Of a stretch of 64,000 nt of DNA, positions 15,072 through 32,844 are shown in pieces; position 1 is the first letter of the stretch; each line of letters begins with the position of its first letter. Both the position numbers and the translations under genes were made by a program. This stretch comes from Desulfocapsa sp. GTDB taxonomy: Bacteria; Desulfobacterota; Desulfobulbia; Desulfobulbales; Desulfocapsaceae. The DNA lies in contig JAOZKN010000001.1 in NCBI GenBank assembly GCA_029935315.1, positions 28,713 through 92,712 on the forward strand. The letters run 5' to 3'. A model generated the notes under the pieces. It was not told the DNA's origin. It saw only the letters and a list, made by a program, of their open reading frames with translations, and did not search any database.

Positions 15072-15116
15072 TATAGTCTGCAGTATTTTTTGAAAAACAA
15101 CTCCAGGGAGGAGAAA

Positions 15117-16340: not shown

Positions 16341-16375
16341 TCGTCTTAGGCTATTTTACTTTGGAGGGATAGAAA

Positions 16376-17593
16376 ATGGATAGTGGAGATACAGCATTTA
16401 TGCTCATTGCTACGGCAATGGTAATGCTTATGACGCCGGGATTGGCGCTTTTTTACAGTGGGTTGGTACGGAGTAAGAACGTGCTGTCCACCACCATGCA
16501 GAGCTTTGTCTGTCTGGGGGTTATCACGGTTATATGGGTTTTGTACGGATATTCTCTGGCCTTTGGCCCGGATGTGGGCCATTTTGTGGGGAATCTGGAT
16601 TTCGCCGGCCTGAAAAATGTTGGCCTGACTCCCGGGCCATACTCAGACACCATCCCTGACCTGCTGTTTTGTGCCTTTCAGCTGATGTTTGCTGTTATCA
16701 CCCCGGCTCTGATCACTGGTGCAATTGCAGAACGAATGAAGTTTTCAGCCTACCTGCTTTTTATTGTCTTCTGGGCTACTTTTGTTTATTTTCCCGTGTG
16801 TCACTGGGTATGGGGACAAGGTGGCTGGCTTGGCGAAATGGGAGCGCTTGATTTTGCAGGCGGTACCGTTATACATATTAACTCAGGCGCCGCGGCACTT
16901 GTTGCCTGTCTTATGCTTGGTAAACGAAAAGGCTATGGTCGTGATGCCATGCATCCCCACAGTTTGCCGCTGACAGTACTTGGTGCTGGCCTGCTCTGGT
17001 TTGGCTGGTTCGGCTTTAATGCCGGTTCTGCCCTGTCTGCAGGGCCAGTCGCCGTGCTTGCACTTATGACTACCCAGGTTGCAACCGGTGCCGGACTTCT
17101 GGCCTGGGTTCTTGCCGAGTGGAAAATGCAGGGAAAACCCACTGTGCTTGGCGCGGCGTCCGGTGCACTCGCAGGTCTGGTAGCAATAACACCGGGAGCT
17201 GGTTTTGTAAGCCCGGTTTCGGCTATGATCATGGGTGGAGTTGCCGGTGTCCTCTGCTACGCAGCTGTTGTTGCCAAGGGAAGGTTCGGCTATGATGATT
17301 CACTTGATGTTGTGGGTATTCATGGTGTCGGTGGATTGTGGGGAGCATTGGCCACAGGTCTTTTTGCCTCCACGGCCGCAAATCCTGATGGGGCAAACGG
17401 GCTTTTCTTTGGAAATCCCGGGCAGTTCGTCACCCAGGCCATTGGTGCAGGAGCTGCAATTGCCTATTCTGTGGTTCTGACCTTTGTGATCTTGAAAGTG
17501 ATTGATCTAAGCATTGGTCTTCGTGTGGATGTCGATGATGAAACCCAGGGGCTGGATGTTACGTCACACGGGGAAGTAGGCTATAATATATGA
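16376..17593 (+). CDS. amt: ammonium transporter (Amt family), copy 2 (tandem paralog)
   Basis: MLMTPGLALFYSGLVRSKNVL, DFAGGTVIHI and GIHGVGGLWG; collinear with copy 1. Confidence 0.9.
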   Translation: MDSGDTAFMLIATAMVMLMTPGLALFYSGLVRSKNVLSTTMQSFVCLGVITVIWVLYGYSLAFGPDVGHFVGNLDFAGLKNVGLTPGPYSDTIPDLLFCAFQLMFAVITPALITGAIAERMKFSAYLLFIVFWATFVYFPVCHWVWGQGGWLGEMGALDFAGGTVIHINSGAAALVACLMLGKRKGYGRDAMHPHSLPLTVLGAGLLWFGWFGFNAGSALSAGPVAVLALMTTQVATGAGLLAWVLAEWKMQGKPTVLGAASGALAGLVAITPGAGFVSPVSAMIMGGVAGVLCYAAVVAKGRFGYDDSLDVVGIHGVGGLWGALATGLFASTAANPDGANGLFFGNPGQFVTQAIGAGAAIAYSVVLTFVILKVIDLSIGLRVDVDDETQGLDVTSHGEVGYNI

Positions 17594-17595
17594 AA

Positions 17596-17632
17596 TTTTT
17601 TACTTAGCCATTTAAATTTACTTTTTACGAGT
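17596..17632 (-). repeat. isolated inverted fragment of the palindromic-element 5' extension/left terminus
   Basis: The reverse complement reads CTCGTAAAAAGTAAATTTAAATGGCTAAGTAAAAAA. Compare 8988-9024, which reads CTCGTAAAAAGTAAGAATTCAGATGGCTAATTTTAAAA. Confidence 0.6.
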
Positions 17633-17676
17633 ATTAATAAGTACGCACTCCCCGTCGGGAGATACTTTGAAAATAG

Positions 17677-18024
<348 letters not shown>

Positions 18025-18106
18025 GGGGCAAAGTTAAAGGTTCAAGGTTAAAAGACCTAAGGCCTTTTCTTGTACCTTAAACCTCGTACCTTCCTACCTA
18101 TAAAAT

Positions 18107-20668
18107 ATGTCAAAATTGCGTACACAAAGAGAAACTCTGGAAGAATTGTGGAAGCAGGGGCTGAGTGGTCAGGCCCTGCTGCTGGAACAGAGTCGTCTTG
18201 CCGATGAATTTATCGCGGAACATTTTCAGGCGTCAGCCGACGATTCTTCCCCGGATTCCCTGGCCATAATAGCCCTTGGCGGGTATGGGCGCAGTGAGCT
18301 TTTTCCCTACTCCGACATTGATCTTCTTATTTTATATAAAGAAGATGCAAAAGAAGAGATGGAGAGGGTGGTTAACGGTGTGCTCTATCCTCTTTGGGAT
18401 ACCGGGCTGGACGTGGGGCACGGTGTACGTACCGTTGATGAGTGCATCAGTTTTGCCGAAGAGGATTTCTTTTTCCGGGTCGCCATGCTCGATGCCAGGT
18501 TGCTGGCAGGCTCTTCCACGCTTTTTTCCCAGTTGCAGGAACGCTACAAGAGCAGGTTTGTAGAGGGTGAGCGAAAGGGTTTTGTGGATGCAATGAAACG
18601 TTTTAAAGGGGAAAGGCGAAAACGATTTGGCAGTCACAGCTATCTTCTTGAGCCCAATATCAAAGAAAGTAAAGGCGGTATGCGTGATATCCAGGCCATG
18701 CTCTGGACAGCCATTGTGGTTTTTGGTTTGCGTGGCGTTGAGGCGATCAGCAGTGCCGGGATTTTACAGGAAGATGAGAAAATCGCATTTCTTGAGGCCT
18801 GGAATATGCTGGTCAGGATACGTAATCGTCTGCATTACATCAGTGGTCGCAAGAACGAACAGTTGTATTTTGAACAGCAGGAAGAGATGGCCGTTGCCTT
18901 TGGTTATAAAGATGACAAGGGTGTACTCGGTGTTGAAAGTTTTATGCGGGAGCTTTACGGCCACCTGCAGACCATCGCTGTGACAACGGATCTCTTTTTC
19001 GGCCATGTGGAAGATGTGCTCGGAGCAGCAGCTGGTGCTCAGGAGAACAACAGGCTTGTGGAAAAAGGGATAGAGATTCGTGCAAATCGTGTGCATCTGG
19101 TGGCTCAGGCCGATGACCTGCGCATCCGTCCCTACCTGCTGATGCGTGTTTTTCTGCTTGCTGCGAAAACCGGACTGCCGATTCATTATAGAAGTCGAAA
19201 ACTCATACGCAGTACTCTTGGATTGGTGACAGACAACCTGCGTTCTTCGGCCAGGATGTCAAAGCCCTTTTTTGAAATTCTTGAGTCTGGTCAGAATGTC
19301 TTATCTGTCCTGGAAATGATGCTGGAAACAGGTCTTCTCTCTGCGTATATTCCCGAGTTTTCCCGTATTGAATCCCTTGCACAACACGATGTCTATCATA
19401 TTTATACCGTGGACCGTCACCTCTTGCAGAGTGTTGCTGAGCTGCGCAATGTCATGAGGACCGAGACGTTGGTCTGGCAGAATGTATCTTCCCTCAAGGT
19501 TCTATTTCTTGCAACATTGCTCCACGATATTGGAAAGGGCGAAGGCGGGGATCACTCTTCCATCGGTGCCGGCAGGATAGCAGAGGTGGGCAGGCGACTT
19601 GGCCTGGACAAGAAGGGGCAGGCAGACCTGGAGTTTGTGCTGCGTTATCATCTTTTTATGCCCGAAAATGCGATGCGTCGTGATCTCAGTGACGAAGCCT
19701 TTATCAGGCAGTGTGCCGAAAAGGTAGGGAGCAGTGACAGGCTGGCCATGCTCTATCTTATTTCTGTTGCTGATTCCCGTGCCACCGGGCCTTCCGCCTG
19801 GAGTGACTGGAAGGCCACCCTCCTCTTTGAGATGTACCAGAAAATTCATCCGTATCTGCAGCTTTCATCTGCGGCTGAGGTGCAGCAGCAGGTTGATCAG
19901 GGAGTGAACTGGCTGCGGGAGCAGGTTGCTGTGCATCTGGAGTCTGATCCAGAGGCAATGGTGATGGTTGATGAGTTGCCCGATGATTATTTACTCAGTT
20001 ATACACCGGAAACTATTGCCGAGCACGTTCGTGTGCACCACAAAAACAGCACACTTCTCAAACAGAAGTCACTTCTTTTTCCCAGGAAAATGCGTTTGCA
20101 ATGGTCACTGCTGGTGATGTGTCAGGACAGGCGTGGGTTACTGGCCAAAATATGCGGGGTATTAAGTCTGCACAATTTATCTGTGTTGAATGCCCATGTC
20201 TTTACCTGGAAAAATGGCAGTGCCGTGGATGTGCTTGAAGTGCGTGCCGAAGACAGTCTTGAATTTGAAGATATGGATTGGGCGGCAGTGGAGAATGACC
20301 TGAACCTTGCCCTCAGTCACCGGCTGGGGTTAGGGCACAGATTGTATAAAAAACTTCAGAGCGCCCGTACGAAACGAAGGCGTCCCGCAGGGCTTGGTGA
20401 AACAAGGGTACTTATAGACAATGAAGCCTCGGAAAAATATACAGTTGTGGAGGTGTATTCCACGGACAGCCCCGGTCAGTTGTATCGTATTACCCAGACC
20501 CTCGCTGATTTTGGCGTGGCCATTTATCGGGCCTATATTGCCACAGAGGTGGAGCAGCTTATTGACGTATTTTATGTGCTGGATAGCCGTGGGCAGCAAA
20601 TCACCGACACAGCTTTTGTAGAAGAGCTGCGCGATGGGATTTTGTATGGAATCGAGGCGACAGTGTGA
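18107..20668 (+). CDS. glnD: [protein-PII] uridylyltransferase/uridylyl-removing enzyme
   Basis: 853 aa with a nucleotidyltransferase domain (ALGGYGRSELFPYSDIDLL), an HD domain (LLHDIGKG) and two C-terminal ACT-like repeats. Confidence 0.9.
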   Translation: MSKLRTQRETLEELWKQGLSGQALLLEQSRLADEFIAEHFQASADDSSPDSLAIIALGGYGRSELFPYSDIDLLILYKEDAKEEMERVVNGVLYPLWDTGLDVGHGVRTVDECISFAEEDFFFRVAMLDARLLAGSSTLFSQLQERYKSRFVEGERKGFVDAMKRFKGERRKRFGSHSYLLEPNIKESKGGMRDIQAMLWTAIVVFGLRGVEAISSAGILQEDEKIAFLEAWNMLVRIRNRLHYISGRKNEQLYFEQQEEMAVAFGYKDDKGVLGVESFMRELYGHLQTIAVTTDLFFGHVEDVLGAAAGAQENNRLVEKGIEIRANRVHLVAQADDLRIRPYLLMRVFLLAAKTGLPIHYRSRKLIRSTLGLVTDNLRSSARMSKPFFEILESGQNVLSVLEMMLETGLLSAYIPEFSRIESLAQHDVYHIYTVDRHLLQSVAELRNVMRTETLVWQNVSSLKVLFLATLLHDIGKGEGGDHSSIGAGRIAEVGRRLGLDKKGQADLEFVLRYHLFMPENAMRRDLSDEAFIRQCAEKVGSSDRLAMLYLISVADSRATGPSAWSDWKATLLFEMYQKIHPYLQLSSAAEVQQQVDQGVNWLREQVAVHLESDPEAMVMVDELPDDYLLSYTPETIAEHVRVHHKNSTLLKQKSLLFPRKMRLQWSLLVMCQDRRGLLAKICGVLSLHNLSVLNAHVFTWKNGSAVDVLEVRAEDSLEFEDMDWAAVENDLNLALSHRLGLGHRLYKKLQSARTKRRRPAGLGETRVLIDNEASEKYTVVEVYSTDSPGQLYRITQTLADFGVAIYRAYIATEVEQLIDVFYVLDSRGQQITDTAFVEELRDGILYGIEATV

Positions 20669-20871
20669 AAATGCAATGTATTACAATTGTGTAAATAAAA
20701 TATTTTTTAATTGAATTTTTCACTCAAAATGGTAATGAGTGACTGTGTGTTTGCTTGGTGCTTTTCACACGAAAATTCAGGTATAAAACCCGTTACGGGA
20801 ACTTCTTTTATTTGTTGTCTGAGAAAGTAAATAAAAGAGATATATTTAACTTTTAGCAAGGAGATTTTGCA

Positions 20872-22200
20872 ATGACCAGAGACGAAATTATGAGAACCAT
20901 TGAGGAGGAAAATATCCATTATTTTCGCCTCCAGTTTGTTGATATTTTTGGTTTTATGAAGAACGTTGCCATTCCCAGAAGCCAGGTTGAAAAGGCCCTT
21001 GATGGTATGATGATGTTTGATGGCTCTTCCATTGACGGTTTTGTCCGCATCAATGAATCCGATATGTACCTGAAGCCGGATTATGATACCTTTACCGTTC
21101 TTCCCTGGAGAAATCAGGATGGTGTTGCTGCAGCTCGTATTATTTGTGATGTTGCTAAATCTGATGGAACTCCTTTTGCAGGCTGTCCAAGAAATAACCT
21201 CAAGCGCGTTCTGGCCGAAGCCAAAGAACTTGGTTACACCATGAACGTTGGTACCGAAGCTGAATTCTTCCTTTTTGAGAAGGATGAAGAAGGACGTGCC
21301 ACCACAATCACCAACGATGTTGCCGGATACTTCAGCCTTGATCCTGAAGATACTGGAAATGATTGTCGTCGTGAGATTATCGAGACCCTCGAAGAGATGG
21401 GTTTTGAGATTGAAGCATCTCATCACGAAGTTGCAGAAGGCCAGCATGAGATTAACTTCAAGTACTCCGATGCCCTTACCGCAGCCGATAATACCATCAC
21501 CTTCAAGTGGGTTGTAAAATCCGTTGCTGCACGTTATGGGCTGTACGCTACCTTTATGCCAAAGCCAATCTTTGGTATCAATGGTTCCGGTATGCATACC
21601 AACCAGTCACTCTTCAACGCAGACGGCACAAACGCTTTCTTTGAAGAAGGTGCACCTCTTCAGCTTTCTGAAACCGCGTATCAGTATATCGCCGGATCTT
21701 TGAAGAATGCCCGTGGCTTTGCAGCAGTTACCAATCCATTGGTAAACTCTTACAAGCGTCTTGTCCCAGGTTATGAGGCTCCTGTTTATGCAGCATGGTC
21801 AGCTTCCAACCGTTCTGCTCTTGTTCGTATTCCTGCATCTCGTGGGCTGGGAACTCGTACCGAGGTTCGTTGTCCGGATCCAACCTGTAACCCTTATCTT
21901 GCACTGGCCATGATGTTGAATTCCGGTCTGGATGGTGTGAAGAACAAGATGGATCCACCTCCATCTGTTGACAAGGACATCTTCAAGATGAGCCCTGCTG
22001 AGATGGATGAGGCCGGTATCCACGTGATGCCAGGCAGCTTGAAAGAGGCCATTGAAGAACTCAAGGCCAATCCCATTGCCAAAGATACTCTTGGCGAGCA
22101 TATCTTTGAGAAATATATTGAGGCCAAAGAGGCCGAGTGGGACAGGTATCGTACTGCAGTTACCGATTGGGAACTCGAGGAGTATCTTGATATTTATTAG
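20872..22200 (+). CDS. glnA: glutamine synthetase, type I (alpha-like, 442 aa)
   Basis: [23 protein letters not shown] and GSGMHTNQS. The position equivalent to the adenylylation Tyr is Phe (DKDIFKMSP, codon at 21982-21984). Confidence 0.95.
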
Positions 22201-22337: not shown

Positions 22338-22943
22338 TTAACGCAATATGATACCACGCTCACGAAGTTCTGAAATAACAACGTTGACACACTCCTGTAG
22401 AGGACGTGTGCCTGTATTCAAGTCAATATCAGGATTTTCAGGTGCCTCATAAGGAGAGGAAATACCGGTATAGTTTTTGATTTCTCCGGCACGGGCTTTC
22501 TTGTACAATCCTTTTACGTCTCGTTCTTCGCAGATTTCAAGGGGACAGTTACAGTAGACTTCGATCAGGTTTTCTTCGCCGATGATCTCTTTCACTTTTT
22601 CACGGTCAGCCGTTAAGGGAGAGATAAAGGCAGTGAGTGAAATAACGCCTGAGTCAAGAAAAAGGCAGACCATTTCTGCAATACGTCGCATGTTTTCACA
22701 GCGGTCATCAAGGCTGAAGCCTAAGTCATTACAGAGTCCGTGCCGTACATTGTCTCCATCAAAAACATAGGTTCTGCAGCCCATCATATGTAATCGCTCT
22801 TCCACCGCATGGGCAAGAGTCGATTTGCCGGAACCGGACAAGCCGGTAAACCAGAGATTAATACTCATGTGGCCATTTAAGGTCTCGCGGCGGGGACGAC
22901 TTACGGCCGCACGATGTTTAACGATATTTGTCGGAGGGATCAT
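22338..22943 (-). CDS. cysC: adenylylsulfate kinase
   Basis: WFTGLSGSGKSTLA P-loop and LDGDNVRHGL-type motif (FDGDNVRHGL). Confidence 0.9.
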   Translation of the reverse strand: MIPPTNIVKHRAAVSRPRRETLNGHMSINLWFTGLSGSGKSTLAHAVEERLHMMGCRTYVFDGDNVRHGLCNDLGFSLDDRCENMRRIAEMVCLFLDSGVISLTAFISPLTADREKVKEIIGEENLIEVYCNCPLEICEERDVKGLYKKARAGEIKNYTGISSPYEAPENPDIDLNTGTRPLQECVNVVISELRERGIILR

Positions 22944-22981
22944 TGTGGATCTCTTAATTCAAGGTTCAAGGCTGAGGGTTT

Positions 22982-23107
22982 GGATGGTTAGTAAAAAACT
23001 TCATATTCGAGGCGCAGAAATTTAAAATTATTTCGGCGTACTGAGGTACGTTGTAATGATTTTAAATTTCCAGCAACGAAGAAGATGAAGAGTTTTTACT
23101 AACCATC
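22982..23107 (+). repeat. intergenic palindromic element, copy 3 (core only)
   Basis: Sequence: GGATGGTTAGTAAAAAACTTCATATTCGAGG ... GAAATTTAAAAT TATTTCGGCGTACTGAGGTACGTTGTAATG ATTTTAAATTTC ... CAACGAAGAAGATGAAGAGTTTTTACTAACCATC. It lies between the galU stop (which it touches) and the cysC start. Confidence 0.85.
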
Positions 23108-23973
23108 TAGCAGAACATATTTTTAAGGTAAGGGAGCAATGTGTCTTTGATTTCAGGATGTTCAAGGGCAAAAGCCAGGTTGGCCATCTGGAAACCGGCT
23201 TTATCTCCACAGTCAAAACGCGTTCCTTCAAAGCGATACCCGAAGATGGGTTGCTCCTGCAGCAGTTGGGACATGGCGTCAGTCAGCTGAATTTCACCCC
23301 CTGCACCGGTTTGCTGCTGGCCAAGGATGTCAAAAATTCTGGGTGTGAGTATATATCTGCCAATCACGGCCATATTGGAAGGCGCTTCATCTGCCGGTGG
23401 CTTTTCGACCATTGCCCGGATCCGGAATGTCTCGTCACTTGGATTTTCGGCGTCCAGTATGCCATAGCGGGAGGTCTCTTCCTTTGGCACTTCAATAACA
23501 GCTACAGTTGATGCACGCAGTCTGTCGTACTCTTTCATCATCTGATGGAGAACCGGAGTATCACTTTTGATGAGATCATCTGCGAGCAAAACGGCGAAGG
23601 GTTCGTCGCCAATGATATCACGGGCACACCATATTGCGTGTCCAAGGCCCAGGGGTTCGCTTTGTCGGGTGTAAATGATGGTTCCGGATTTGGGGACGAG
23701 GGATTCGATCTCTTTTAAGATTTCGACTTTCTGGCGTTTTCTGAGAGTTTCTTCCAGTTGAAAGGATCTGTCAAAATGGTTTTCCAGTGATCCTTTTCCT
23801 CCGCCGGTAACAAAAATGAGTTGCTCAATGCCTGAGGCCAGGGCTTCCTCAACAGCGTATTGGATCAAGGGTTTGTCAACAATAGGCAGCATTTCCTTGG
23901 GCATTGCTTTGGTGGCAGGAAGGAATCTGGTGCCGAGTCCAGCAACCGGGAAGACAGCTTTTTTTATTTTCAT
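23107..23973 (-). CDS. galU: UTP--glucose-1-phosphate uridylyltransferase
   Basis: MKIKKAVFPVAGLGTRFLPATKAMPKEMLPIVDKPLIQY; start trimmed from 24006. Confidence 0.9.
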   Translation of the reverse strand: MKIKKAVFPVAGLGTRFLPATKAMPKEMLPIVDKPLIQYAVEEALASGIEQLIFVTGGGKGSLENHFDRSFQLEETLRKRQKVEILKEIESLVPKSGTIIYTRQSEPLGLGHAIWCARDIIGDEPFAVLLADDLIKSDTPVLHQMMKEYDRLRASTVAVIEVPKEETSRYGILDAENPSDETFRIRAMVEKPPADEAPSNMAVIGRYILTPRIFDILGQQQTGAGGEIQLTDAMSQLLQEQPIFGYRFEGTRFDCGDKAGFQMANLAFALEHPEIKDTLLPYLKNMFC

Positions 23974-24225
23974 AGAAATTCCAGAGTAATGATGGTTTCG
24001 TAACAACCTGAAAGCAGGATGATTAAGTAAAAAGAACTCACCTGCATTGATAACACAGGAAGAAAAAATTGGCGATACAACTGGCTATAGTTTAGTACAA
24101 AAATCGTATAAATTCAAAAAGGAAATAACTGTAGAAGTTTTAAAAGCTGATGTAAATAGGCATAAATACTAGTTTTCAGATACTTTATGCAATTTTGTGC
24201 ACTCCTGCGTTCTTTTCACAGAAAT

Positions 24226-25314
24226 CTAGATCTTTGGGCCCATGAAATTGCTGAGAAGGGAGAGGGTATTTGCCAGCAATAAACCGGTCGCAGCCCCGCC
24301 CATGTCAATGAGCAGATCGGTGAGGAGTGGTGAGCGGTTTTCAATGAAAAACTGGCTGAATTCCGTTGCGCAGGCAAGCATAAAAACATCGGTGATTAAG
24401 AAGCCGACAGGTCTGGACGGGTTGCTGCGGCGTAACAGAAGTACGAGGAAGGCAAAGAGGATAAAGTGAGCAATTTTGCTGATATCTATCATATCACCTG
24501 TTGATTGTTGCCATTGGGATTGTGGGGGCATTCCTGTCGCTGCAGGATGTGGAGCACTGATTTTACTCACCTGCGTTGTCAGTTGACTATCTATTTGTGT
24601 TTTAAGTTTATTTTTCAATTCTGCTGGCATAGTGGTGCCGATAAGGATAACCGCCACCGTCACAAGCAAGAGGAACCTGGGGACTGCAAGCCGTTGATGC
24701 GTCATGTATGGGGCAAAAAGTAAAAAGGAAAACAGTACCCATGCACTCCTCAGCAGCCATTTTGTTTTCTGGTAAAGGGAGGTTTCTGCCACCTGGTAGA
24801 GGCTGAGGTTTTTGAGAAAGAATTCACCACTGCAATGACTCATCTGTACGACAACCCGAAAAACGCTGCAGTCGGGTGCAATTGTGAAAACGCTACTTAC
24901 TTCCTGCCAGGCATTTGTGCCGTTTAAAGCTGCCACCTGGTACGGGATGCTGTATCTGGCCACGTCTCCAAAATACTGAACCAGGAGAAGGCGTGCCCGG
25001 TGGTGTGCTTTACTTCCTGCCACGGTATCGTAGCTTCGCAGCACAGCATTGAGTTGTACTTTTTTACCGGCAAAACGATTTGGAATGGTCTGATAAAAGG
25101 ATAGACTTGTCTTTGCATCGGCAGAATGCATTGCAAGTTTTCCATTTTGGGCAATTATTGTATCTGTGTCTGCTTTATGTGACTGCCACTGTTCCAGGCC
25201 AGAGGAAAAGTTTGTATCATTTAGTATTTGTTGGCCAGTTGTATAGTATTGAGGGAGAAATGCAGCACAGCAAAGTGTGGTAAGTGCGAGGAGGAGGAAG
25301 ATACCTGTTTTCAT
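24226..25314 (-). CDS. membrane protein with an N-terminal CBM-like beta-sandwich region and a C-terminal VanZ-like domain
   Basis: Signal peptide MKTGIFLLLALTTLCCAAF. NDTNFSSGLEQWQSH...VFRVVVQ resembles CBM4_9-type modules. The C-terminal TM region KIAHFILFAFLVLLL...DLLIDMGGAATG is VanZ-like. Weak, pattern-based assignment. Confidence 0.4.
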   Translation of the reverse strand: MKTGIFLLLALTTLCCAAFLPQYYTTGQQILNDTNFSSGLEQWQSHKADTDTIIAQNGKLAMHSADAKTSLSFYQTIPNRFAGKKVQLNAVLRSYDTVAGSKAHHRARLLLVQYFGDVARYSIPYQVAALNGTNAWQEVSSVFTIAPDCSVFRVVVQMSHCSGEFFLKNLSLYQVAETSLYQKTKWLLRSAWVLFSFLLFAPYMTHQRLAVPRFLLLVTVAVILIGTTMPAELKNKLKTQIDSQLTTQVSKISAPHPAATGMPPQSQWQQSTGDMIDISKIAHFILFAFLVLLLRRSNPSRPVGFLITDVFMLACATEFSQFFIENRSPLLTDLLIDMGGAATGLLLANTLSLLSNFMGPKI

Positions 25315-25403
25315 TCCATCGTCATCTGTGTTGAGATTTTTCGGAGATGGGTTGGCAGCAAGTGGACAAAATTTGATGCCCGTGGGGAAGGGGAAGGTAA
25401 AAG

Positions 25404-25480
25404 TGGTACGCCAAGCAGGATTCGAACCTGCGACCTACGGCTTAGAAGGCCGTTGCTCTATCCAGCTGAGCTATTGGCGC
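25404..25480 (-). tRNA. tRNA-Arg (anticodon UCU), CCA encoded
   Basis: Reverse complement: GCGCCAATAGCTCAGCTGGATAGAGCAACGGCCTTCTAAGCCGTAGGTCGCAGGTTCGAATCCTGCTTGGCGTACCA. It folds as a cloverleaf with D stem GCTC/GAGC, anticodon stem ACGGC/GCCGT, loop CT-TCT-AA and T arm GCAGG-TTCGAAT-CCTGC. Confidence 0.9.
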
Positions 25481-25656
25481 ACAATGTATGAGCCTGTGAG
25501 TTTACAAGTCCATAACAACATACTTGCTATAAAATATAGTACTCAAAAAATCAACCCCATTCTTGATCGTTTGAGGAAGCAGGGCAATCTTGACAGATCT
25601 ATTTCGTGTAACCTTACAATATCAACTGCTAAGTGCATTTGCTACTTGAATTCACC

Positions 25657-28005
25657 TTATAGTTTTTTTGAACCTGGGCAATCTTCCCCGATAGGTTTCC
25701 ATACCGGGCCAGTGACGGTGTCGATGATCTGTATTCCATGCCGGATCAGTTCGTCCCGTGCTTCATCTGCAGCCTGCCAGTTTTTCTCATTGCGTGCCTG
25801 CTCACGTCGCTGGATCAGGGCATTGGCAGACGGTGCCAGTGGACAGCCTTTGAGACGGAAAATCTGTAGAATTTTGTTAATTTGCCCCAAACTTTCCAGG
25901 ATATATTTTTTCTGATCGCCGTCCAGATGGTTCACATGCAGGATGGGGTTCGTCTGCTTAATAAACCTGTATATTGCGCTCATTGCTTTTGAAACATTGA
26001 GATCGTCATCCATGGCGGCAAAAAAATGATCCTCCATGGCAGAAACGTAAGCAGTTACCTCAGGATGAGGTTTACCGGGGGGCAGACAGAGGAGCTTGCA
26101 GGTGAATTCATCTATCCTTCTCAGGGCTGTGCGCACATTGGTCAGGCGGCGTAAAGAAAAGTTGAGTGGTTTGCGGTAATGAACGGAAAGCAGCATAAAA
26201 CGAACATCACGAGGAGTAAATCCACGAAGTAAAACATCCTTGAGGGTCACAACATTGTTGGCCTCGGTGGACATCTTTTTGCCATCCACCAGCAGGAGTT
26301 CCGAGTGTAGCCAGTACTTTGCCAGGGGTTTACCGGTAAGTGCTTCGGCAATGGCGATTTCATTTTCATGGTGAGGGAAGATAAGATCACGGCTGGAGGT
26401 ATGGATATCCATGGTCTCACCAAGATATTTGGTGGACATGGCGGAACACTCAATGTGCCAGCCCGGTCGAACATTTCCCCAGTCGGTCTCATAAAAGATG
26501 CCTTTTTTCAGTTCGGCCAGGGTCGAACGTTTGAGCAGGGTGAAGTCGCGCGGATTGTCTTTCTCATAATTATCAAGATCAACTGTTTTGCCCAGCTGAA
26601 TTTTGCCAAGATCAATGCCTGACAGGCGGCCATATTTCTTGAATTTCGAGATGTCAAAATAGATGGAGCCATGCTTTTCATAGGCAAAGCCCTTGTGCAG
26701 CAATTCGTGGGCTATTTCAATCATATTCCCCACGTGTTCGGAAGCCTTGGGGTACGTCGTTGCCCGCTTAACACTGAGAGAATCGATGTCCTCCATAAAA
26801 CTTTCGATATATTTCTCGGTAAAATCCTTAAGAGATTTTCCGGCATTGTTTGCGCCATCGATGGTGTTATCATCCAGGTCGGTGAAATTCATGCAGGAAT
26901 TTACGTCATAGCCTTTGTATTCCAGGTGGCGGGTGATAAGATCCGAGACCACAAATCTTCGGCACAGAGAAAGGTTTGTCGGTTCGTAAGCTGTTGGGCC
27001 ACAGGTGTAGAATGTCACCGATTTTTCCTGCTGTGATACAAACTTTTCTTTCTTTTTGGTCAGGGTATTAAAAAAACAGAGGCCTGCCTTCTTCTCTGTC
27101 GCCTTGTTTTTACGGGTAAACAGAGGAGTGGAAAGGTAGCGTTCACCACCGTCCGGGAAAATTGTCACAATAAAACCCTCATCCAGGGTGTTCGCCAGTT
27201 CAAGGGTAGAGAACATGGCTGCACCGCTACTCATCCCAACCAGTAAACCTTCTTTTCTGGCAAGGAGTCTGGCCATGCGAAAGGCATCTTCGTCGTGAAT
27301 GGTGACAATTTCGTGGGGTAATGATTTGTCAAAGATTCCCGGGCGATAGGATTCTTTCATGTTTTTCAGGCCCTGGATCTTATGACCAAGGTAGGGCTCA
27401 ACCGCAACTATGTTTACCTGTGGCTGGTGCTCTGAAAACCATTTGCAGAGACCCATCACTGTTCCGGATGTGCCAAGGGTAGCAACTATATGGGTTACTT
27501 TGCCTTCGGTTTGTTCCCAGATTTCAGGTGCTGTGTGGTTGTAATGTGCTTTCCAGTTGGCTTCATTGTTGAACTGGTCGGTGAGGAAATAACGGTCTGG
27601 AAATTCACGAGCCATGGCGTAGGTTTTTTCGATGGCTCCGTCTGTACTTCTTTTTGCAGGGGTGAGCAGGATTTCTGCCCCGTAGGCCTGCATAATTTTT
27701 CTGCGTTCAAGGGATGCGGATTCTGGCATGACCAGCTGGCAGCGATATCCTTTTGCTGCGCAGACCATGGCAAGGCCGATTCCGGTGTTGCCGCTGGTGG
27801 CCTCAAGAACGATTTTGCTGGAAGTTAATTCTCCGCTGGCCTCTCCTGCTTCAATAAGGGACAGGGAGATTCGTTCTTTTACTGATCCGCCAGGGTTTCT
27901 GGATTCTAACTTGCCGTACACGAGGGCATTGGATGTGTTGAGACGGTTGATGCGTACCAGGGGAGTGTCACCGATGGCATCTAAAACAGTGTCGCAGAGG
28001 CTCAT
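25657..28005 (-). CDS. fusion protein: CysK-type PLP-dependent cysteine synthase (aa 1-~296) + CysRS-like domain with degenerate class-I signatures (aa ~309-782)
   Basis: N-terminal domain: NPGGSVKER (PLP Lys43), TSGNTGIGLA, GTSGT and GMSSGAA. C-terminal domain is collinear with E. coli CysRS from residue 2 (LCFFNTLTKKKEKF). It retains CGPT, GWHIECSAM, FPHHENEIA and AMDDDLN. HIGH is replaced by NLSL (aa 344-347), KIIK by NTID, and KMSKS by KMSTE (aa 577-581). Confidence 0.8.
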   Translation of the reverse strand: MSLCDTVLDAIGDTPLVRINRLNTSNALVYGKLESRNPGGSVKERISLSLIEAGEASGELTSSKIVLEATSGNTGIGLAMVCAAKGYRCQLVMPESASLERRKIMQAYGAEILLTPAKRSTDGAIEKTYAMAREFPDRYFLTDQFNNEANWKAHYNHTAPEIWEQTEGKVTHIVATLGTSGTVMGLCKWFSEHQPQVNIVAVEPYLGHKIQGLKNMKESYRPGIFDKSLPHEIVTIHDEDAFRMARLLARKEGLLVGMSSGAAMFSTLELANTLDEGFIVTIFPDGGERYLSTPLFTRKNKATEKKAGLCFFNTLTKKKEKFVSQQEKSVTFYTCGPTAYEPTNLSLCRRFVVSDLITRHLEYKGYDVNSCMNFTDLDDNTIDGANNAGKSLKDFTEKYIESFMEDIDSLSVKRATTYPKASEHVGNMIEIAHELLHKGFAYEKHGSIYFDISKFKKYGRLSGIDLGKIQLGKTVDLDNYEKDNPRDFTLLKRSTLAELKKGIFYETDWGNVRPGWHIECSAMSTKYLGETMDIHTSSRDLIFPHHENEIAIAEALTGKPLAKYWLHSELLLVDGKKMSTEANNVVTLKDVLLRGFTPRDVRFMLLSVHYRKPLNFSLRRLTNVRTALRRIDEFTCKLLCLPPGKPHPEVTAYVSAMEDHFFAAMDDDLNVSKAMSAIYRFIKQTNPILHVNHLDGDQKKYILESLGQINKILQIFRLKGCPLAPSANALIQRREQARNEKNWQAADEARDELIRHGIQIIDTVTGPVWKPIGEDCPGSKKL

Positions 28006-28104
28006 TATTGTGGAAGTACCTTTCTTGAGAAATGATTAATCAAATGGAATTTTACTCTATTGTTAATTCCAGTCAGATGCAAGCAGGAAGATTACGGCTG
28101 TTCC

Positions 28105-28575
28105 TTATCCATTCTTAACCGCTTTGGAAATATACCAGAAACGCAGGAGCGCCTCCCTTGAATCTTTGTCCACGATAGAAGAAACCTGCGCCTCAAAATC
28201 CGCAAGCTCCTGTGCTGGCGGTGGTACATATCGCAGGGGAGGGGCTTTTGTTTCTTCTGCAAACTCCTTTCCAGCTACGTAAAAGCGAATCCCTTTTAAC
28301 TTTGTTGATCCCAGAGATTGATTTAAGGTTTCCAGAAAGAACGGACTTTGGTACTGAAACTGCTGCAGCCAGGCCGAGTTTTCCGCTTCCACCCACAGTA
28401 CTTTTTTAACAATCTTCAGGGGTTTACAGTGTGCTGTGATTTCACGGTCAAGCAGGTTTTCCCAGTCCAGGAACAAAGAATGCAACTCAAGCTGCTCCTT
28501 CCAGCCTTGCTGGCGCGAAAGCTGTGGCAGAAGATTTACCAGCCCCTGTAAAGTGGTTTTTTTCTTTTTTACCAA
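28105..28575 (-). CDS. DUF721 (DciA-like) domain protein
   Basis: VLWVEAENSAWLQQFQYQSPFFLETLNQSLGSTKLKGIRFYV fits the DUF721 pattern. A TTG start follows the SNF2 TAG stop directly. Confidence 0.65.
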   Translation of the reverse strand: MVKKKKTTLQGLVNLLPQLSRQQGWKEQLELHSLFLDWENLLDREITAHCKPLKIVKKVLWVEAENSAWLQQFQYQSPFFLETLNQSLGSTKLKGIRFYVAGKEFAEETKAPPLRYVPPPAQELADFEAQVSSIVDKDSREALLRFWYISKAVKNG

Positions 28576-31500
28576 CTATTTTCTGCGAATTAAGTCCAGC
28601 AGGGCTTCGCTACTCATTTTGGCACTCATATCAGAGCCTTCAAGTAAGCTTCCTGCCAGGTCACGCTTCTCCATATGCAGCCGGACAATTTTTTCCTCGA
28701 TGGTATTTTTGCAGACCAGGCGATAGATGGTCACAGGCCGTGTCTGGCCAATGCGATGTGCACGATCTGAGGCCTGGTCCTCAACGGCCGGATTCCACCA
28801 GGGATCCATGTGAATGACATAGTCAGCCGCAGTGAGGTTGAGACCAAGGCCTCCGGCCTTCAGGCTGATAAGAAAAAGATCCCCTTCACCGGCCTGGAAT
28901 GCATCCACCTGCTGCTTCCGCTTGGGGCTGCTCGTGGAGCCGTCAAGGTAGCGGTAGTCAATGCCTTTACCGTCCAGGTGCTCCCGCAATATTGACAGGT
29001 GGCCGATAAACTGGCTGAAAATAAGTGCCTTATGTCCACCCGCCAGTAACTCATCAATGACTGAGGCGAAAACTTTGAGCTTGGCACTCTCTATGTTTGT
29101 ATCTTCTGTGATCAGGCGCGGATTACAACAGGCCTGGCGCAGCTTCATGATCTCTGTCAGGATTTGTAAATGCCGCGCCTTTTTCTCCTGATTGTTTTCA
29201 AGAACTTCCAGGGCGTTTTGGCGTAAGGCTTCGTAGAAGAGTTTTTCCTCCTCACTCATTTCCACTTCAAGGGTGATTTCTGTACGCGGTGGCAACTCTT
29301 CCAGTACCTGAGATTTAATACGACGCAGGATAAAAGGCTGAATAAGTTTCTTCAGCTTGAGTCTGGCTTCACGGTTATGGTAACGCTCGATGGGGATGGC
29401 AAAGCGTTCATTGAAACGGTTCAGGGTCCCAAGGAGGCCAGGGTTTATAAAATGGAACAGATTCCAGAGTTCACCAAGATGGTTTTCAACGGGAGTCCCC
29501 GTGGTGAGCAGTTTGAACTTTGCCTGCAGCGCCATGGCAGCTTTTGAGCGTTTGGTGGCAGCATTTTTGATGGCTTGCGCCTCGTCAAGGATAACAGTTT
29601 GCCATTTGACTGCAGAAAGAAGCTCGTTTTCCTGCTGTAATAGGGTGTAGGTGGTGATAAGGAGATCGAATTTACCCAGGCCGGAGATAGTCTCAGCCCT
29701 GTTTTTTCCCATCAGGCTCTTTATGTTCAGTGTTGGCGTGAAGCGATTGCATTCAGATTCCCAGTTGCTGGAAACGGACGTCGGGGCAATCACCAGGGAT
29801 GGGCCATCAGATGCCAGGGAGAGCATTACGGCCAGGGCCTGAATGGTTTTACCGAGACCCATGTCGTCGGCAAGGCATCCGCCTACTCCCCAGTGGGCGA
29901 GGCGAGAGAGCCAGTGAAATCCTTCTTCCTGGTATTCACGCAGTTCTGCACGCAGGGTTGTGGGAAGCTCCGGTTTAAAGCTTTGACTGTCGTGGATGCG
30001 TTTTATCTGGTCCTTCCATCCGTCGTCAACCTGTGCTTTTGCCTGGTCTACCAGTTTCTCAAGCGGAATGGCGGCAAGATGATGGATAAGAACCTCGTCA
30101 TCTTCACCTTTGGCATCCAGTCCTTCCGAGTAAAGGTTGATCTCTTCCAGTTTTTTCTTGAACTCCTGGGTCAGGGCGAGAAATTGACCTTCTCCAATCT
30201 GTATAAAGTGGCCGTGGGCGGTTTTGACTTTTTTCAGCAGTTCGCGCAGGTCAATAACCGTATCCTGATCAAGTTTTAACTCTCCCGAAAGGGCAAACCA
30301 GTTCTGCTGGCTGGTACGCACTTTAAGATTCAGGTTTTTCAGTGAGGCCTGATGGGTGATATTGAGTTTTTCACCTTCCGGCCACTCAATAACGACCTGG
30401 TCCTGGATGGTCTGCAATTCCTGCAATGCCTGGAGGCAGTCGTCCGGATCCTGCAGGTGCCATTCTCTGTCATTTTCCTGTTCGAGATCAACGGCAAGAT
30501 CAAGGATGGGGCATGATTCTTCAACCTCCCTGGCCATATGTTCTTCAAGGCCAAGGTCCCGTTTTGTCTGTAGCCGTTTCCCCCGTACTTCGGCAATGAT
30601 GTTTTCAACTCCCTGTCCGGGTTTGAGGTAGTGACCTCCGTTGAAAAAAGGTTTCACAAACATTTCCAGTCTGAAACCTGTACCGTATGGAATCAGGTGC
30701 ATGTAAATGGTGGGGTCTGCTTCAACTTGTTCGATACTGGCGTAGTTTCCACTGGTTGTGTCGGCTGCAATTGCCGAATGAACAGTCATAAAGGAGGAAA
30801 TATTACCGATGGCCGTGAGTACCTGCTCGCTGGCTTCTATGGGGACCACAAGGCCGCTCTTTCCGGTTATCTGGGCAATTCGACGATGGTTGTCGTTTAT
30901 CTCTATTATTTTATAGCGGGTGGGTGTTTCCTGGAAAATAGTTATTTTGTCTGCGGTTACATCCTGGGCAAAGCAGATATGGAGTTGTGAACCTCGTTCT
31001 TCCACCAGCAGTTCAGGCTCTCCGGTAACAAATTCAACAGGTGTCCCAGGTGATTTGGCGAAAAAGAGTAAGGGGTGGTTCACCATGGCCAGTAAGGTCT
31101 TGTCCATGTCGAACTGGTAGTTTACGCCATGGGTCTCCGGGTTGACTTGTTTTTCGATGCAGGCAGATATTTTTCGATCCTGTATGCTCAGGTAACCCAG
31201 CTTGCCGGAGTAAAGCCGGGAAAGCGATATGGGACGTCCCTTGCTCCAGTTACCGGATGCTCCCTGTTTCTGTTCTTTGGGACTGATATGCATGTTGCCG
31301 TTCACATATTCAACCAGCCATATAAGTCTTTCTGTCTGCAGGGACTCAGCCCCGTGTGGAGAGGCAGTCACTTGGATAAGCGCCTGCAGATTGCGTTTCC
31401 ATGGCTCTTCGGAGGCAAGAATAGTAGTGAGTGGGCTCAGTCCTGTTTCCTGCTGCAGCTGCTCTATTACGGAGCTATAATCTTCTTCCCCATGTTCTGT

Positions 31501-32844
31501 CCCCTCCAGAATGGCTGCCATATTCAGGGTAAAGAAGTGAAATCCATTTTTCTTGGCCTGTCTGTAGAGGGCTACCACCCGCTTGCTTACTTCGGGCTGC
31601 AGGCTGGAATTGAGCCAGTACTGGCCAAGGGCAGTAAAGAGAATGGTGAGGCTGTGTGGTTCGTCGTCTTTATGAAAGCTCATCTCTTCACCGGGAAGTG
31701 CATGGGACGCCCTTACCTGGAGAAATCCTGCAAATGCCTGGTAGGCCTTTTCTTCAGCACTGCCTGTGAAAAGGGACAGGGCGATTCCAATTTGCTGCGC
31801 TACTTTTTGTCCCTGGTCACCCTGATTGTTCTGCAGGGTGGAAAGTGCATGGAAAAGGCCTGTGGGTCCAAAAAAAGCGGCATTTTCGCTGCCGCTCAGG
31901 TCCCGGAGAAAGTCGAGGTCATGTTCAAATAACTCGGTGGTGGTCTCAGGGGCGCCCTGGAGAAAGGCAAGGGTGCCAGTTGCTCCGGTTCCGGAAAAGC
32001 TATCCCTGTTTTCTTCGACCAGCTTTGCTGCATTGTCTATCTGCCCTCTGAATATATACTGGCTAAAGAGGAGGCGATGGAAGGGGAGTTTTTCGTCACT
32101 GCTCAGGTCCTCAAGTCCTGTTTCATCCTGCAGGTAGGCAAGAATTTCAGGGAAGCTGTGCAGGGTTGATATCTCGTACTTTGCAATCTGATCAAGGAGA
32201 AAAAATTGAAAAGAAGGAGCCATGGATTTGAACCATACAGGATCAAAAGGGCGTGTGGTTACCTGAATAGTGGGGGGCAGCGGAGAGAGGATATCCCGGC
32301 ACTGTCCTGTAAGGAACTCAAGGGCATCATCGATGAGGTCAAAATCCTGTGTATATACGCCGATGCGCATTTCCCGCATGGCTCGCCAGCAGCGCGTTGT
32401 CCATTTTCCGTAGTAGTAGGATACCGGCGCTTCTTTGCGAATAACTTTTGCGTATGTTGCGAAAGTATCATCCTTGACTGCCATCCGGCTCAGCTGCTCA
32501 ACGATCAGTGGTGCGCACTGTTTTTCTTTGGTGAGAAGGCCGGTTTCCTGGAATTTGGAAAAATAGTGGTTCAGATTGGCAGCTGTGGGCCGATTTCCGC
32601 GCGGGCTGCGGATATCAAGTTTACGCAAACAGTTGACGATGAGCGTTGAATGAGCAGGCTCGTAAACAATTGATTGAAATTGCAGGAGAGTTTGCTCAAA
32701 AGGAGTGAGTTTGTCGTAGTGCTGAAGTAATTCGGTGCTGGGGTCTGACATATCGTATTTAGGATGTGGTGCAATTTGTGGCACGGGCTTTACGGCCATG
32801 AACCATGGACCTGAGGTAACAGGCTGAAACAAACTATTCAACAT
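28576..32844 (-). CDS. SNF2-family ATPase/helicase, 1422 aa, with a long N-terminal extension
   Basis: The C-terminal third carries LREYQEEGFHWL, DDMGLGKTIQ, ILDEAQAIKN, LLTGTPVENHL and DRAHRIGQTRPV. The middle resembles the bacterial SNF2-associated domain. I do not recognise the first ~450 aa. Confidence 0.85.
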   Translation of the reverse strand: MLNSLFQPVTSGPWFMAVKPVPQIAPHPKYDMSDPSTELLQHYDKLTPFEQTLLQFQSIVYEPAHSTLIVNCLRKLDIRSPRGNRPTAANLNHYFSKFQETGLLTKEKQCAPLIVEQLSRMAVKDDTFATYAKVIRKEAPVSYYYGKWTTRCWRAMREMRIGVYTQDFDLIDDALEFLTGQCRDILSPLPPTIQVTTRPFDPVWFKSMAPSFQFFLLDQIAKYEISTLHSFPEILAYLQDETGLEDLSSDEKLPFHRLLFSQYIFRGQIDNAAKLVEENRDSFSGTGATGTLAFLQGAPETTTELFEHDLDFLRDLSGSENAAFFGPTGLFHALSTLQNNQGDQGQKVAQQIGIALSLFTGSAEEKAYQAFAGFLQVRASHALPGEEMSFHKDDEPHSLTILFTALGQYWLNSSLQPEVSKRVVALYRQAKKNGFHFFTLNMAAILEGTEHGEEDYSSVIEQLQQETGLSPLTTILASEEPWKRNLQALIQVTASPHGAESLQTERLIWLVEYVNGNMHISPKEQKQGASGNWSKGRPISLSRLYSGKLGYLSIQDRKISACIEKQVNPETHGVNYQFDMDKTLLAMVNHPLLFFAKSPGTPVEFVTGEPELLVEERGSQLHICFAQDVTADKITIFQETPTRYKIIEINDNHRRIAQITGKSGLVVPIEASEQVLTAIGNISSFMTVHSAIAADTTSGNYASIEQVEADPTIYMHLIPYGTGFRLEMFVKPFFNGGHYLKPGQGVENIIAEVRGKRLQTKRDLGLEEHMAREVEESCPILDLAVDLEQENDREWHLQDPDDCLQALQELQTIQDQVVIEWPEGEKLNITHQASLKNLNLKVRTSQQNWFALSGELKLDQDTVIDLRELLKKVKTAHGHFIQIGEGQFLALTQEFKKKLEEINLYSEGLDAKGEDDEVLIHHLAAIPLEKLVDQAKAQVDDGWKDQIKRIHDSQSFKPELPTTLRAELREYQEEGFHWLSRLAHWGVGGCLADDMGLGKTIQALAVMLSLASDGPSLVIAPTSVSSNWESECNRFTPTLNIKSLMGKNRAETISGLGKFDLLITTYTLLQQENELLSAVKWQTVILDEAQAIKNAATKRSKAAMALQAKFKLLTTGTPVENHLGELWNLFHFINPGLLGTLNRFNERFAIPIERYHNREARLKLKKLIQPFILRRIKSQVLEELPPRTEITLEVEMSEEEKLFYEALRQNALEVLENNQEKKARHLQILTEIMKLRQACCNPRLITEDTNIESAKLKVFASVIDELLAGGHKALIFSQFIGHLSILREHLDGKGIDYRYLDGSTSSPKRKQQVDAFQAGEGDLFLISLKAGGLGLNLTAADYVIHMDPWWNPAVEDQASDRAHRIGQTRPVTIYRLVCKNTIEEKIVRLHMEKRDLAGSLLEGSDMSAKMSSEALLDLIRRK

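Follow-up and report, generated by a model that had tools for sequence, protein, structure and literature searches.

A 64,000-nucleotide stretch of Desulfocapsa sp. DNA (the whole of which is referred to below as the window) encodes on its reverse strand, between positions 25657 and 28005, a protein in which an apparently CysM-like cysteine synthase is fused in frame to a paralogue of cysteinyl-tRNA synthetase (CysRS). The ATP-site signatures of the CysRS-like module have been replaced while its zinc/cysteine pocket and anticodon-binding domain are kept, and the fusion recurs order-wide in the Desulfobulbales. On comparative grounds, the module is read here, with rather less than even confidence, as a non-charging CysRS paralogue that may bind cysteine and/or tRNA-Cys and regulate or couple the synthase to which it is tethered. 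An earlier reading of the letters alone (the sequence-only reading) had proposed that this domain probably does not charge tRNA and acts as a cysteine- or tRNA-binding module. The comparative data lend it support, in that 14 of 68 positions invariant in canonical CysRS are lost, the pocket and the anticodon domain are preserved, and the constraint on the CysRS-like domain equals that on the synthase domain. A widespread and strongly conserved protein is thus systematically mis-named “cysteine--tRNA ligase”, which affects both pathway reconstruction and the marker schemes that count TIGR00435 (cysS) matches. Because the fusion scores above the TIGR00435 cutoff, Desulfobulbales genomes probably give two cysS matches and may disturb single-copy marker counts.

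Two modules in a single reading frame

The open reading frame (ORF; 25657-28005, reverse strand, as for all parts of the fusion) was recognised by translation, Pfam, NCBIfam, and homologues, and translates into 782 residues without an internal stop. Residues 1-296 (27118-28005) form a pyridoxal phosphate (PLP) domain of the CysK/CysM family, supported by TIGR01136, by matches in the PDB, and by Pfam PALP at residues 8-285 (E 1e-68). A basic linker of residues 297-308 (27082-27117), read as F296-TRKNKATEKKAG-L309 and holding neither a stop nor a start codon, leads into the CysRS homologue, which spans the full length from residue 309 to residue 770, with L309 pairing with L2 of Escherichia coli CysRS in tblastn. 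Its first part, residues 309-640 (26086-27081), is a Rossmann/connective peptide (CP) catalytic-fold domain with a degenerate ATP site, delimited by tRNA-synt_1e, tblastn, structure prediction, and substitution rates; the tRNA-synt_1e match itself covers residues 323-624 (E 1.5e-93) and profile positions 3-299 of 301. The second part, residues 641-770 (25696-26085), comprises a DALR helical bundle and a C-terminal anticodon-binding domain, with DALR_2 at residues 660-716 and CysS_C (the CysRS anticodon-binding domain) at residues 723-759, both above the Pfam cutoffs. The whole CysRS-like region (residues 310-770) reaches 409.9 bits against the TIGR00435 cutoff of 340. The uninterrupted ORF and the methionine-free junction, at which a short linker gives way to the equivalent of E. 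coli L2, had both been described by the sequence-only reading and are borne out, and the profile searches it had suggested returned all three of PALP, tRNA-synt_1e, and DALR_2 and set the domain limits. A weak Pfam RuBisCO_large match also falls in the CP region, at residues 404-542 (approximately 26380-26796; E 3e-4, 20.5 bits, below the cutoff of 30.1). It recurs in the Pfam lists of many family members and is almost certainly spurious, though consistent.

The N-terminal domain carries the motifs GSVKER, TSGNTG, GTSGT, and GMSSGAA, and K43 of GSVKER (codon 27877-27879), the lysine of the PLP Schiff base, was recognised from the translation and from alignment to solved cysteine synthases and is kept in relatives; TSGNTG and GS[VI]K[ED]R were each found in 77 of 77 genomes. 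The best PDB matches are CysK1 of Mycobacterium tuberculosis (2Q3B) and CysM of E. coli (2BHT) and Salmonella, the two former sulfhydrylases matching at 250-265 bits, and the domain resembles these enzymes in its complete catalytic apparatus. The score of 354.7 lies above the cutoff of the cysKM subfamily (TIGR01136, 344.15) and below those of both equivalogs, with 344.3 against 394.2 for CysM (TIGR01138) and 319.9 against 350.95 for CysK (TIGR01139). Since only the subfamily cutoff is passed and the CysK loop insertion is absent from the alignment to solved enzymes, the domain is, by sequence, CysM-like or intermediate and not CysK proper. The apparently intact CysK synthase of the sequence-only reading accordingly stands as regards the PLP synthase motifs, all of which are present, and fails as regards the CysK label. 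The fusion further departs from the free-standing sulfhydrylases in a mobile loop of its own, the family-specific GHKIQGLKNMKESYRPG at residues 207-223, and in its CysRS-like C-terminal extension of 480 residues.

AlphaFold2 (AF2), supplied with a 64-sequence alignment, gave a mean predicted local distance difference test score (pLDDT) of 81.8 and a predicted template modelling score (pTM) of 0.59. The CysRS-like domain lies mostly above a pLDDT of 90, while the stretch around the linker (residues 287-306) and the mobile loop of the synthase fall below 50. The fusion is thus modelled as two folded modules on a flexible, disordered tether, without a confident interface, which fits modules that are tethered yet able to act as separate proteins. 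Among relatives, the linker differs in length and sequence and the frame is kept.

ATP site, cysteine pocket, and anticodon domain

The register of the synthetase motifs was taken from four independent alignments, namely tblastn with E. coli CysRS, phmmer against PDB entries 8qhp, 3tqo, and 1li5, MAFFT with 89 canonical CysRS, and Pfam coverage. The E. coli query (461 residues) matches the published numbering of C28, C209, H234, E238, W205, and T68. In this register, HIGH is replaced by NLSL (residues 344-347, 26965-26976) and KMSKS by KMSTE (residues 577-581, 26263-26277), both placed by tblastn, phmmer, and MAFFT. DIHTSSRD stands in place of DIHGGGxD (residues 533-540, 26386-26409; MAFFT), with the loss of the glycine-rich ATP/ribose loop, and the KIIK slot reads NTID. 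All four replacements agree, in residues and in coordinates, with those picked out by the sequence-only reading. That reading had allowed that functional HIGH and KMSKS equivalents might have been mis-aligned; mis-alignment as the source of the apparent loss is ruled out, given that all four alignments share one register.

The loss was placed on a quantitative footing by inspecting 59 family members at the 68 positions whose invariance reaches 90% or more in the 89 canonical CysRS (a diverse set from a library clustered at 50% identity). Fourteen of these positions are altered in the family (H37, G39, K73, W184, W194, G201, G226, G227, D229, Q241, K266, K269, S270, and A355) and approximately 54 are unchanged, most of the altered ones being either ATP-site signatures (H37, G39, G226, G227, D229, K266, K269, and S270) or K73. 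Thus, H37 and G39 of HIGH, found in 100% of the canonical enzymes, become N (86%) and S or L, respectively. In the glycine loop, G226 and G227 both become S and position 229 is N (68%) or D, so that the window protein has TSSRD against the canonical GGGxD. In KMSKS, K266 is K or M (Met in approximately 40% of relatives, Lys in the window protein), A, T, or Q takes the place of K269 and E or D that of S270, with the second lysine restored in none of the motif variants listed from the 80 genomes. K73 of KIIK is replaced by N in 100% of the family and the slot reads NTI[AEDQ] throughout, with K76, which lies outside the position tally, replaced as well (by Asp in the window). The remaining alterations are W184 to L, W194 to Y or F, G201 to V, Q241 to I, and A355 to G.

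The lost slots also drift among close relatives. The HIGH slot appears as NLSL, NLLL, SLSL, DLSL, NLAH, HLAH, or HLGH between fixed flanking residues, and the KMSKS slot as KMSAE, KMSSD, and others of the form KMS[x][E/D], or as MMSAE, NMSSD, and others. Judged from the alignments, such drift has the look of relaxed constraint, and an essential ATP site would not be expected to vary so. What argues for inactivity is that HIGH, the glycine loop, and KMSKS have all been lost together, that the KMSKS loop carries an acidic residue, and that the slots are variable; the lysines alone do not carry the argument.

The amino acid site presents the opposite picture. The stretch 26359-27003 holds the zinc/cysteine-pocket ligands C335, C520, H545, and E549, equivalent to E. 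coli C28, C209, H234, and E238, together with G336, T375, and W516, all invariant both in the family and in canonical CysRS. The zinc/cysteine ligands that the sequence-only reading had listed as kept are hence present and family-invariant. In E. coli numbering, the pocket residues conserved in 100% of the family are C28, G29, T68, W205, H206, E208, C209, H224, H234, H235, and E238, and among the 80 genomes CGPT and FPHHENE occur in all 80 and WH[IV]EC in 79. Conservation is likewise complete for the C-terminal invariants R423, D436, R439, G446, D451, and G455, of which R423, D436, R439, D451, and G455 correspond to R734, D747, R750, D762, and G766 of the anticodon domain in the window protein.

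Relative to canonical CysRS (CysS, EC 6.1.1.16; E. coli, PDB 1LI5/1U0B), the module therefore shows 38% identity over E. coli residues 2-367 (E 8e-83 to 1li5), the same order of Rossmann/CP domain, DALR bundle, and anticodon-binding domain, and the same zinc/cysteine ligands and anticodon-domain invariants. It differs in that HIGH, GGGxD, and KMSKS are replaced and variable, in its position behind a cysteine synthase, and in its membership of a distinct paralogue clade. As far as sequence can define the enzyme, the fusion fails two defining features of CysRS, HIGH and KMSKS, and the name cysteine--tRNA ligase is not warranted for it.

Distribution and stages of decay

A genome scan, restricted to one genome per species and employing two peptide patterns specific to the paralogue clade, found a relative encoded at no fewer than 596 species-level genome loci (at least 596), of which the best 80 were analysed. 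All of these 80 are Desulfobulbales. Both domains share one ORF in 77 of the 80, the remaining three being cut by contig ends; with the ORF continuous in so many independent assemblies, an assembly or read-through artefact is ruled out. The assembly error considered by the sequence-only reading is thereby set aside, and the survey it had proposed shows the fusion and its degenerate motifs to be order-wide in the Desulfobulbales. The hosts include the cultured Desulfosediminicola flagellatus, Desulfopila sp. IMCC35008, and Desulfogranum marinum, as well as Desulfobulbus, Desulfurivibrio, and the cable bacteria Ca. Electrothrix and Ca. Electronema. In the protein database, more than 120 clusters share 75-100% identity with the fusion at equal length and with the same domains, drawn from Desulfotalea, Desulfocapsa, Desulfofustis limnaeus (complete genome), Desulfoprunum, and Desulfobulbaceae, and every named cluster is labelled cysteine--tRNA ligase (NCBI, UniRef, and JGI). 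The clade is marked by the signatures NPRDFTLLKR, WGNVRP[GS]W, and AYEK[HL]xS[IV]YFD, none of which occurs in canonical CysRS.

The two halves of the protein are equally constrained. The nonsynonymous divergence (dN) is 0.07-0.15, the same in the CysM-like and the CysRS-like domains, and across 69 genomes the CysM domain averages 75% identity to the window protein and the CysRS-like catalytic-fold domain 74%; synonymous divergence is saturated (dS >2), so that dN and identity are the only meaningful measures. As both equal the values of the synthase domain, the CysRS-like domain is not decaying and is held under strong purifying selection for some function.

An exhaustive search of representatives at 50% identity, scored for motifs and names, revealed a wider family in which every stage is preserved: an intact fusion, a split pair beside a canonical cysS, fusions in which the ATP site is lost, and others in which only the anticodon domain is left. 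The fusion P0123, from a Nanoarchaeota metagenome-assembled genome (MAG), has fully canonical HIGN, KTIK, GWHLEC, DIHTGG, and KMSKS. Partly decayed fusions are represented by P0121 (HLGN/KMSRS) and by P0294 from a Deltaproteobacteria MAG (HIGL/NTID/KMSRS). The type seen in the window protein comes next in the series, and P0122-type fusions have lost one zinc cysteine as well. Within the Desulfobulbales, the HIGH slot drifts from HLGH in a deep Desulfobulbia MAG through HLAH in Desulfurivibrio and NLAH in Desulfobulbus and the cable bacteria to NLSL in Desulfocapsaceae, the window included. In P0126 (from the cultured Desulfovibrio ferrophilus, and named “cysteine synthase”), P0127, and P0128, the catalytic and zinc residues are all gone; all three of these fully degenerate fusions nevertheless retain R423, D436, and D451, and two retain R439, with Lys in the third. 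By sequence, then, the anticodon-binding domain is the sole feature common to the whole fusion family, and the fact that its residues outlast the loss of the zinc pocket in some lineages points to tRNA binding as the shared function. The family offers a good system for studying the change from aminoacyl-tRNA synthetase (aaRS) to pseudo-enzyme.

The closest standalone relative of the C-terminal module, P0133 (484 residues, 47% identity, HIGT and KMARS), lies on JGI 3300037047 contig Ga0377239_000086, which measures 269,753 bp at 67% GC and so represents a high-GC organism. Directly upstream of it is a PALP gene of 296 residues that is 59% identical to the N-terminal domain of the window protein and shares the GHKIQGLKN loop, with a TGA stop and 2 nt between the two genes. 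A canonical CysRS, P0254 (HIGH, KIIE, DIHGGG, and KMSKS), is encoded approximately 165 kb away on the same contig; the split pair and the canonical cysS occupy 9108-11455 of locus L005 and 10001-11482 of locus L003, respectively. This canonical cysS has no relative above 52% identity among its 120 best database matches. The adjacency of the cysM-like gene and P0133 indicates that the pairing of CysM with the CysRS-like protein is conserved in both fused and split form, and the presence of P0254 on the same contig indicates that, in at least one lineage, the paralogue exists alongside a real synthetase and does not replace it. The sequence-only reading had regarded two separate genes in relatives as a sign that the fusion might be erroneous; the sole split case proves to be a genuine adjacent pair from a distant lineage that coexists with a canonical cysS.

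Candidate functions and genomic context

The reading favoured here supposes that the N-terminal module is a CysM-type PLP enzyme that would form cysteine from O-acetyl- or O-phospho-serine and a reduced sulfur donor in a beta-replacement reaction. The CysRS-like module would have lost ATP binding and activation, and hence aminoacylation, retaining the CysRS fold, a zinc-thiolate cysteine pocket, and the anticodon-binding domain. Its zinc site may bind cysteine, either free or as the cysteinyl end of Cys-tRNA-Cys, its anticodon domain may bind tRNA-Cys, and such binding might tune the tethered synthase, or couple it, to cysteine and tRNA-Cys status by a logic analogous to that of HisZ or GCN2. 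Cys-tRNA-Cys itself would be made by a separate canonical CysRS. We infer the loss of aminoacylation, the actual binding of cysteine and tRNA-Cys, and the regulatory effect on the synthase from the comparisons set out above.

Of the two models for this logic, HisZ is a catalytically dead HisRS paralogue that serves as the regulatory subunit of the short-form ATP-phosphoribosyltransferase HisG in histidine feedback. The likeness, one of analogy and not homology, is that of an aaRS paralogue with lost catalytic motifs and a kept amino acid site, physically coupled to the cognate biosynthetic enzyme. HisZ, however, belongs to another aaRS class and amino acid, lacks an anticodon-binding domain where the fusion retains one, and is a separate subunit, whereas the CysM/CysRS-like partners are usually fused (split in one lineage) and their regulation is putative. 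The HisRS-like domain of the eukaryotic kinase GCN2, which senses uncharged tRNA and binds many tRNAs, is likewise a pseudo-synthetase with tRNA-binding features fused to an enzyme tied to amino acid supply. The analogy is limited by the effector, a kinase in GCN2 and the biosynthetic enzyme itself in the fusion, and by the residues retained, which in the fusion are CysRS-specific anticodon-domain invariants. MshC (Cys:GlcN-Ins ligase) is a CysRS paralogue with a zinc/cysteine pocket used outside translation. It keeps ATP-dependent cysteine activation and has no anticodon-binding domain, so that the retention pattern of the fusion is the opposite one, with ATP motifs lost and the anticodon domain kept, and the fusion fails the MshC model TIGR03447 (197.6 against a cutoff of 485.1). 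In the SepRS-SepCysS transsulfursome of methanogens (with SepCysE), PLP-dependent cysteine formation is physically coupled to a tRNA-Cys-binding synthetase-type protein (PMC8762117, PMC5424206). The fusion is alike in coupling a PLP cysteine-forming enzyme to a synthetase-type protein, but SepCysS, of fold type I, acts on Sep-tRNA and SepRS is an active class II synthetase, whereas the fusion joins a PALP enzyme of fold type II to an apparently dead class I module. Full-text searches, and PMC2922099, PMC9437257, PMC8762117, and PMC5424206 on aaRS paralogues and cysteine-coding systems, yielded no account of a CysK/CysM-CysRS fusion. Compared with the known couples of pseudo-synthetase and biosynthetic enzyme, the family is unusual in having retained the anticodon domain and in preserving all evolutionary stages, and it brings cysteine into the small group of amino acids with a dead copy of the cognate synthetase recruited to their biosynthesis, HisZ being the classic case.

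Several observations weigh against the reading of a non-charging, ligand-binding module. The conserved amt-glnB-glnD-glnA-dciA context has no link to sulfur metabolism or translation, and the AF2 model shows no fixed interface able to transmit allostery. Cysteine sensing is not a function common to the whole family, because D. ferrophilus-type members lack the cysteine pocket. The others bear equally on the least probable of the alternatives, which is that the fusion is still a working CysRS, perhaps the only one in the cell, and hence a bifunctional synthase/CysRS with non-canonical ATP-binding residues. No canonical cysS was found in the window (by tblastn with E. coli CysRS) or at the 80 fusion loci, and no canonical CysRS of the Desulfobulbales appeared among the matches listed for either P0137 or P0254 as query. 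HLGH or HLAH is retained in some early-branching Desulfobulbia copies, and the fusion both exceeds the TIGR00435 equivalog cutoff and bears the ligase name in three databases. Lysine loss alone is moreover no proof of inactivity, because the K73A, K76A, K266A, and K269A mutants of E. coli CysRS are reported still to support cell-free translation (PMC5660078). Against a working synthetase stand the absence of the two histidines of HIGH, of the GGG loop, and of the second lysine of KMSKS, the acidic residue now present in the phosphate-binding loop, the free variation of the active-site slots among close relatives, the gradation of the family into members without zinc ligands in the cultured D. 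ferrophilus, and the coexistence of P0133, the closest standalone relative, with a canonical CysRS on one contig.

The retained cysteine pocket and anticodon domain would equally serve an unlikely channelling or adaptor role, in which the dead domain recruits tRNA-Cys and maybe holds newly made cysteine on its zinc site, so that cysteine arises beside the substrate of translation and passes to the canonical CysRS, shielding a reactive and toxic amino acid in a sulfide-rich cell without any regulation. The existence of the intact-motif fusion P0123 makes direct coupling of synthesis and charging a plausible ancestral logic, and the further cysteine-pathway CysRS fusion P0459, with a Hexapep domain, accords with it. 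Nothing, however, suggests an interaction with canonical CysRS, two proteins competing for one tRNA anticodon would hinder the hand-over, and the D. ferrophilus-type members have no pocket in which cysteine could be held. It is also quite unlikely that the fusion performs tRNA-dependent chemistry, in which Cys-, Ser-, or Sep-tRNA-Cys would replace ATP as substrate, the anticodon domain would dock the tRNA, and the PLP domain or the zinc site would carry out on-tRNA conversion, cysteinyl transfer, deacylation, or persulfidation. Cyclodipeptide synthases, class-I-like enzymes that take aminoacyl-tRNA instead of ATP, provide a precedent beside SepCysS, and the loss of the ATP site with retention of the amino acid pocket and tRNA-binding domain is as expected of class-I-like users of aminoacyl-tRNA. 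The flexible linker of the AF2 model would let the tRNA 3' end reach the PLP domain, and the anticodon-domain residues persist in the fully degenerate members. The carboxylate-binding Asn loop TSGNTG, complete in every genome, is nevertheless typical of free-amino-acid enzymes, the PLP domain is of fold type II and not of the SepCysS fold, and W184, W194, G201, and Q241, which surround the acceptor-end pocket, are among the lost residues. No SepRS came to light, although no search was aimed at one.

A role in handling sulfur species is considered very unlikely; the fusion would here serve to make or handle cysteine persulfide, S-sulfocysteine, or another thiol, with its zinc site binding the product of the CysM-type domain. 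CysM-type enzymes are known to accept larger sulfur nucleophiles, and the hosts are sulfur-disproportionating or sulfide-oxidising Desulfobulbales. Persulfide synthase activity has been reported for CysRS, with lysines K73, K76, K266, and K269 of KIIK/KMSK of CARS reported as needed (PMC5660078). The fusion family lacks this lysine set: K73 and K269 are replaced family-wide, K266 is often Met, and K76 is Asp in the window. The persulfide idea floated by the sequence-only reading is consequently weakened for the C-terminal domain, although K266 is kept in the window protein. Sulfur-relay genes are absent from the neighbourhood, and sequence cannot tell a persulfide from a thiol ligand.

A bolder form of the favoured reading, possible though on the unlikely side, would make the dead CysRS domain a dedicated reader of tRNA-Cys or Cys-tRNA-Cys, so that cysteine output is set by the charging of one tRNA, or cysteine is made on or next to the tRNA. 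Were this true, the fusion would be the first bacterial metabolic enzyme under a fused pseudo-synthetase tRNA sensor, order-wide and with the cable bacteria included, and the family would form a natural evolutionary series from bifunctional synthase-synthetase to pure sensor. Because the anticodon domain is kept, unlike in HisZ, a tRNA-responsive metabolic enzyme is directly testable here. Cultured hosts with complete genomes are available in Desulfosediminicola flagellatus, Desulfopila sp. IMCC35008, and Desulfofustis limnaeus, and Desulfogranum marinum DSM 2058 is cultured with a draft assembly.

As regards a separate canonical cysS beside the paralogue, this was seen only in the split-pair relative (P0133/P0254). 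The query P0137, the closest canonical representative, returned Acidobacteriota and Omnitrophota among the matches listed, and P0254 returned Aquificota, Geobacterales, and Desulfobacterota. Other CysRS fusions were encountered on the way. P0452 and P0453 (652 residues) are canonical-type CysRS, close to Elusimicrobia-labelled CysRS, with an extra PF08915 domain (tRNA-Thr_ED, ThrRS-type editing). The same editing domain is reportedly fused to bacterial SepRS, according to Mukai et al., and the two cases may be parallel. P0459 (705 residues) combines CysRS with a PF00132 hexapeptide-repeat domain and is possibly a serine-acetyltransferase-like CysE fusion, which would again join cysteine synthesis physically to CysRS.

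Directly upstream of the fusion lies dciA (28105-28575, reverse strand; helicase-loader family, Pfam DciA E 9e-20). It occupies this position in 60 loci (median gap, 147 nt) and, though conserved as a neighbour, has no obvious share in the function. Clustering of neighbours gave the conserved order amt-glnB-glnD-glnA-dciA-fusion, with nothing conserved downstream. In the window, two tandem ammonium transporter genes, glnD, and glnA occupy 15036-22200 on the forward strand, and the reverse-strand block dciA-fusion-tRNA-Arg-VanZ-galU-like-cysC (22338-28575) is inverted with respect to glnA; in other Desulfobulbales, the order from amt to the fusion is collinear. The tRNA-Arg(TCT) gene downstream of the fusion (25404-25480, reverse strand; ARAGORN and Rfam tRNA) is context only and is not tRNA-Cys; ARAGORN found it to be the only tRNA in the window, with no tRNA-Cys gene. 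No T-box or riboswitch was found in 24000-29500 (Rfam, E up to 1). The upstream spacer of approximately 100 nt is not conserved by eye in loci L001 and L002, and an mRNA mimic of the tRNA-Cys anticodon arm is unsupported.

The only sulfur-assimilation gene near the fusion encodes the APS kinase CysC (22338-22943, reverse strand; Pfam E 1.6e-64), 2.7 kb downstream and past the genes for a VanZ-like membrane protein and a GalU-like nucleotidyltransferase, and the neighbour clustering did not return cysC as conserved. Directly upstream of dciA is a gene for an SNF2-family helicase of 1422 residues (28576-32844, reverse strand), the first approximately 970 residues of which have no Pfam match at E 1e-5. 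Finally, a low-complexity ORF of 296 residues at 20707-21597 (reverse strand), antisense to glnA (20872-22200, forward strand), is most likely a shadow ORF.

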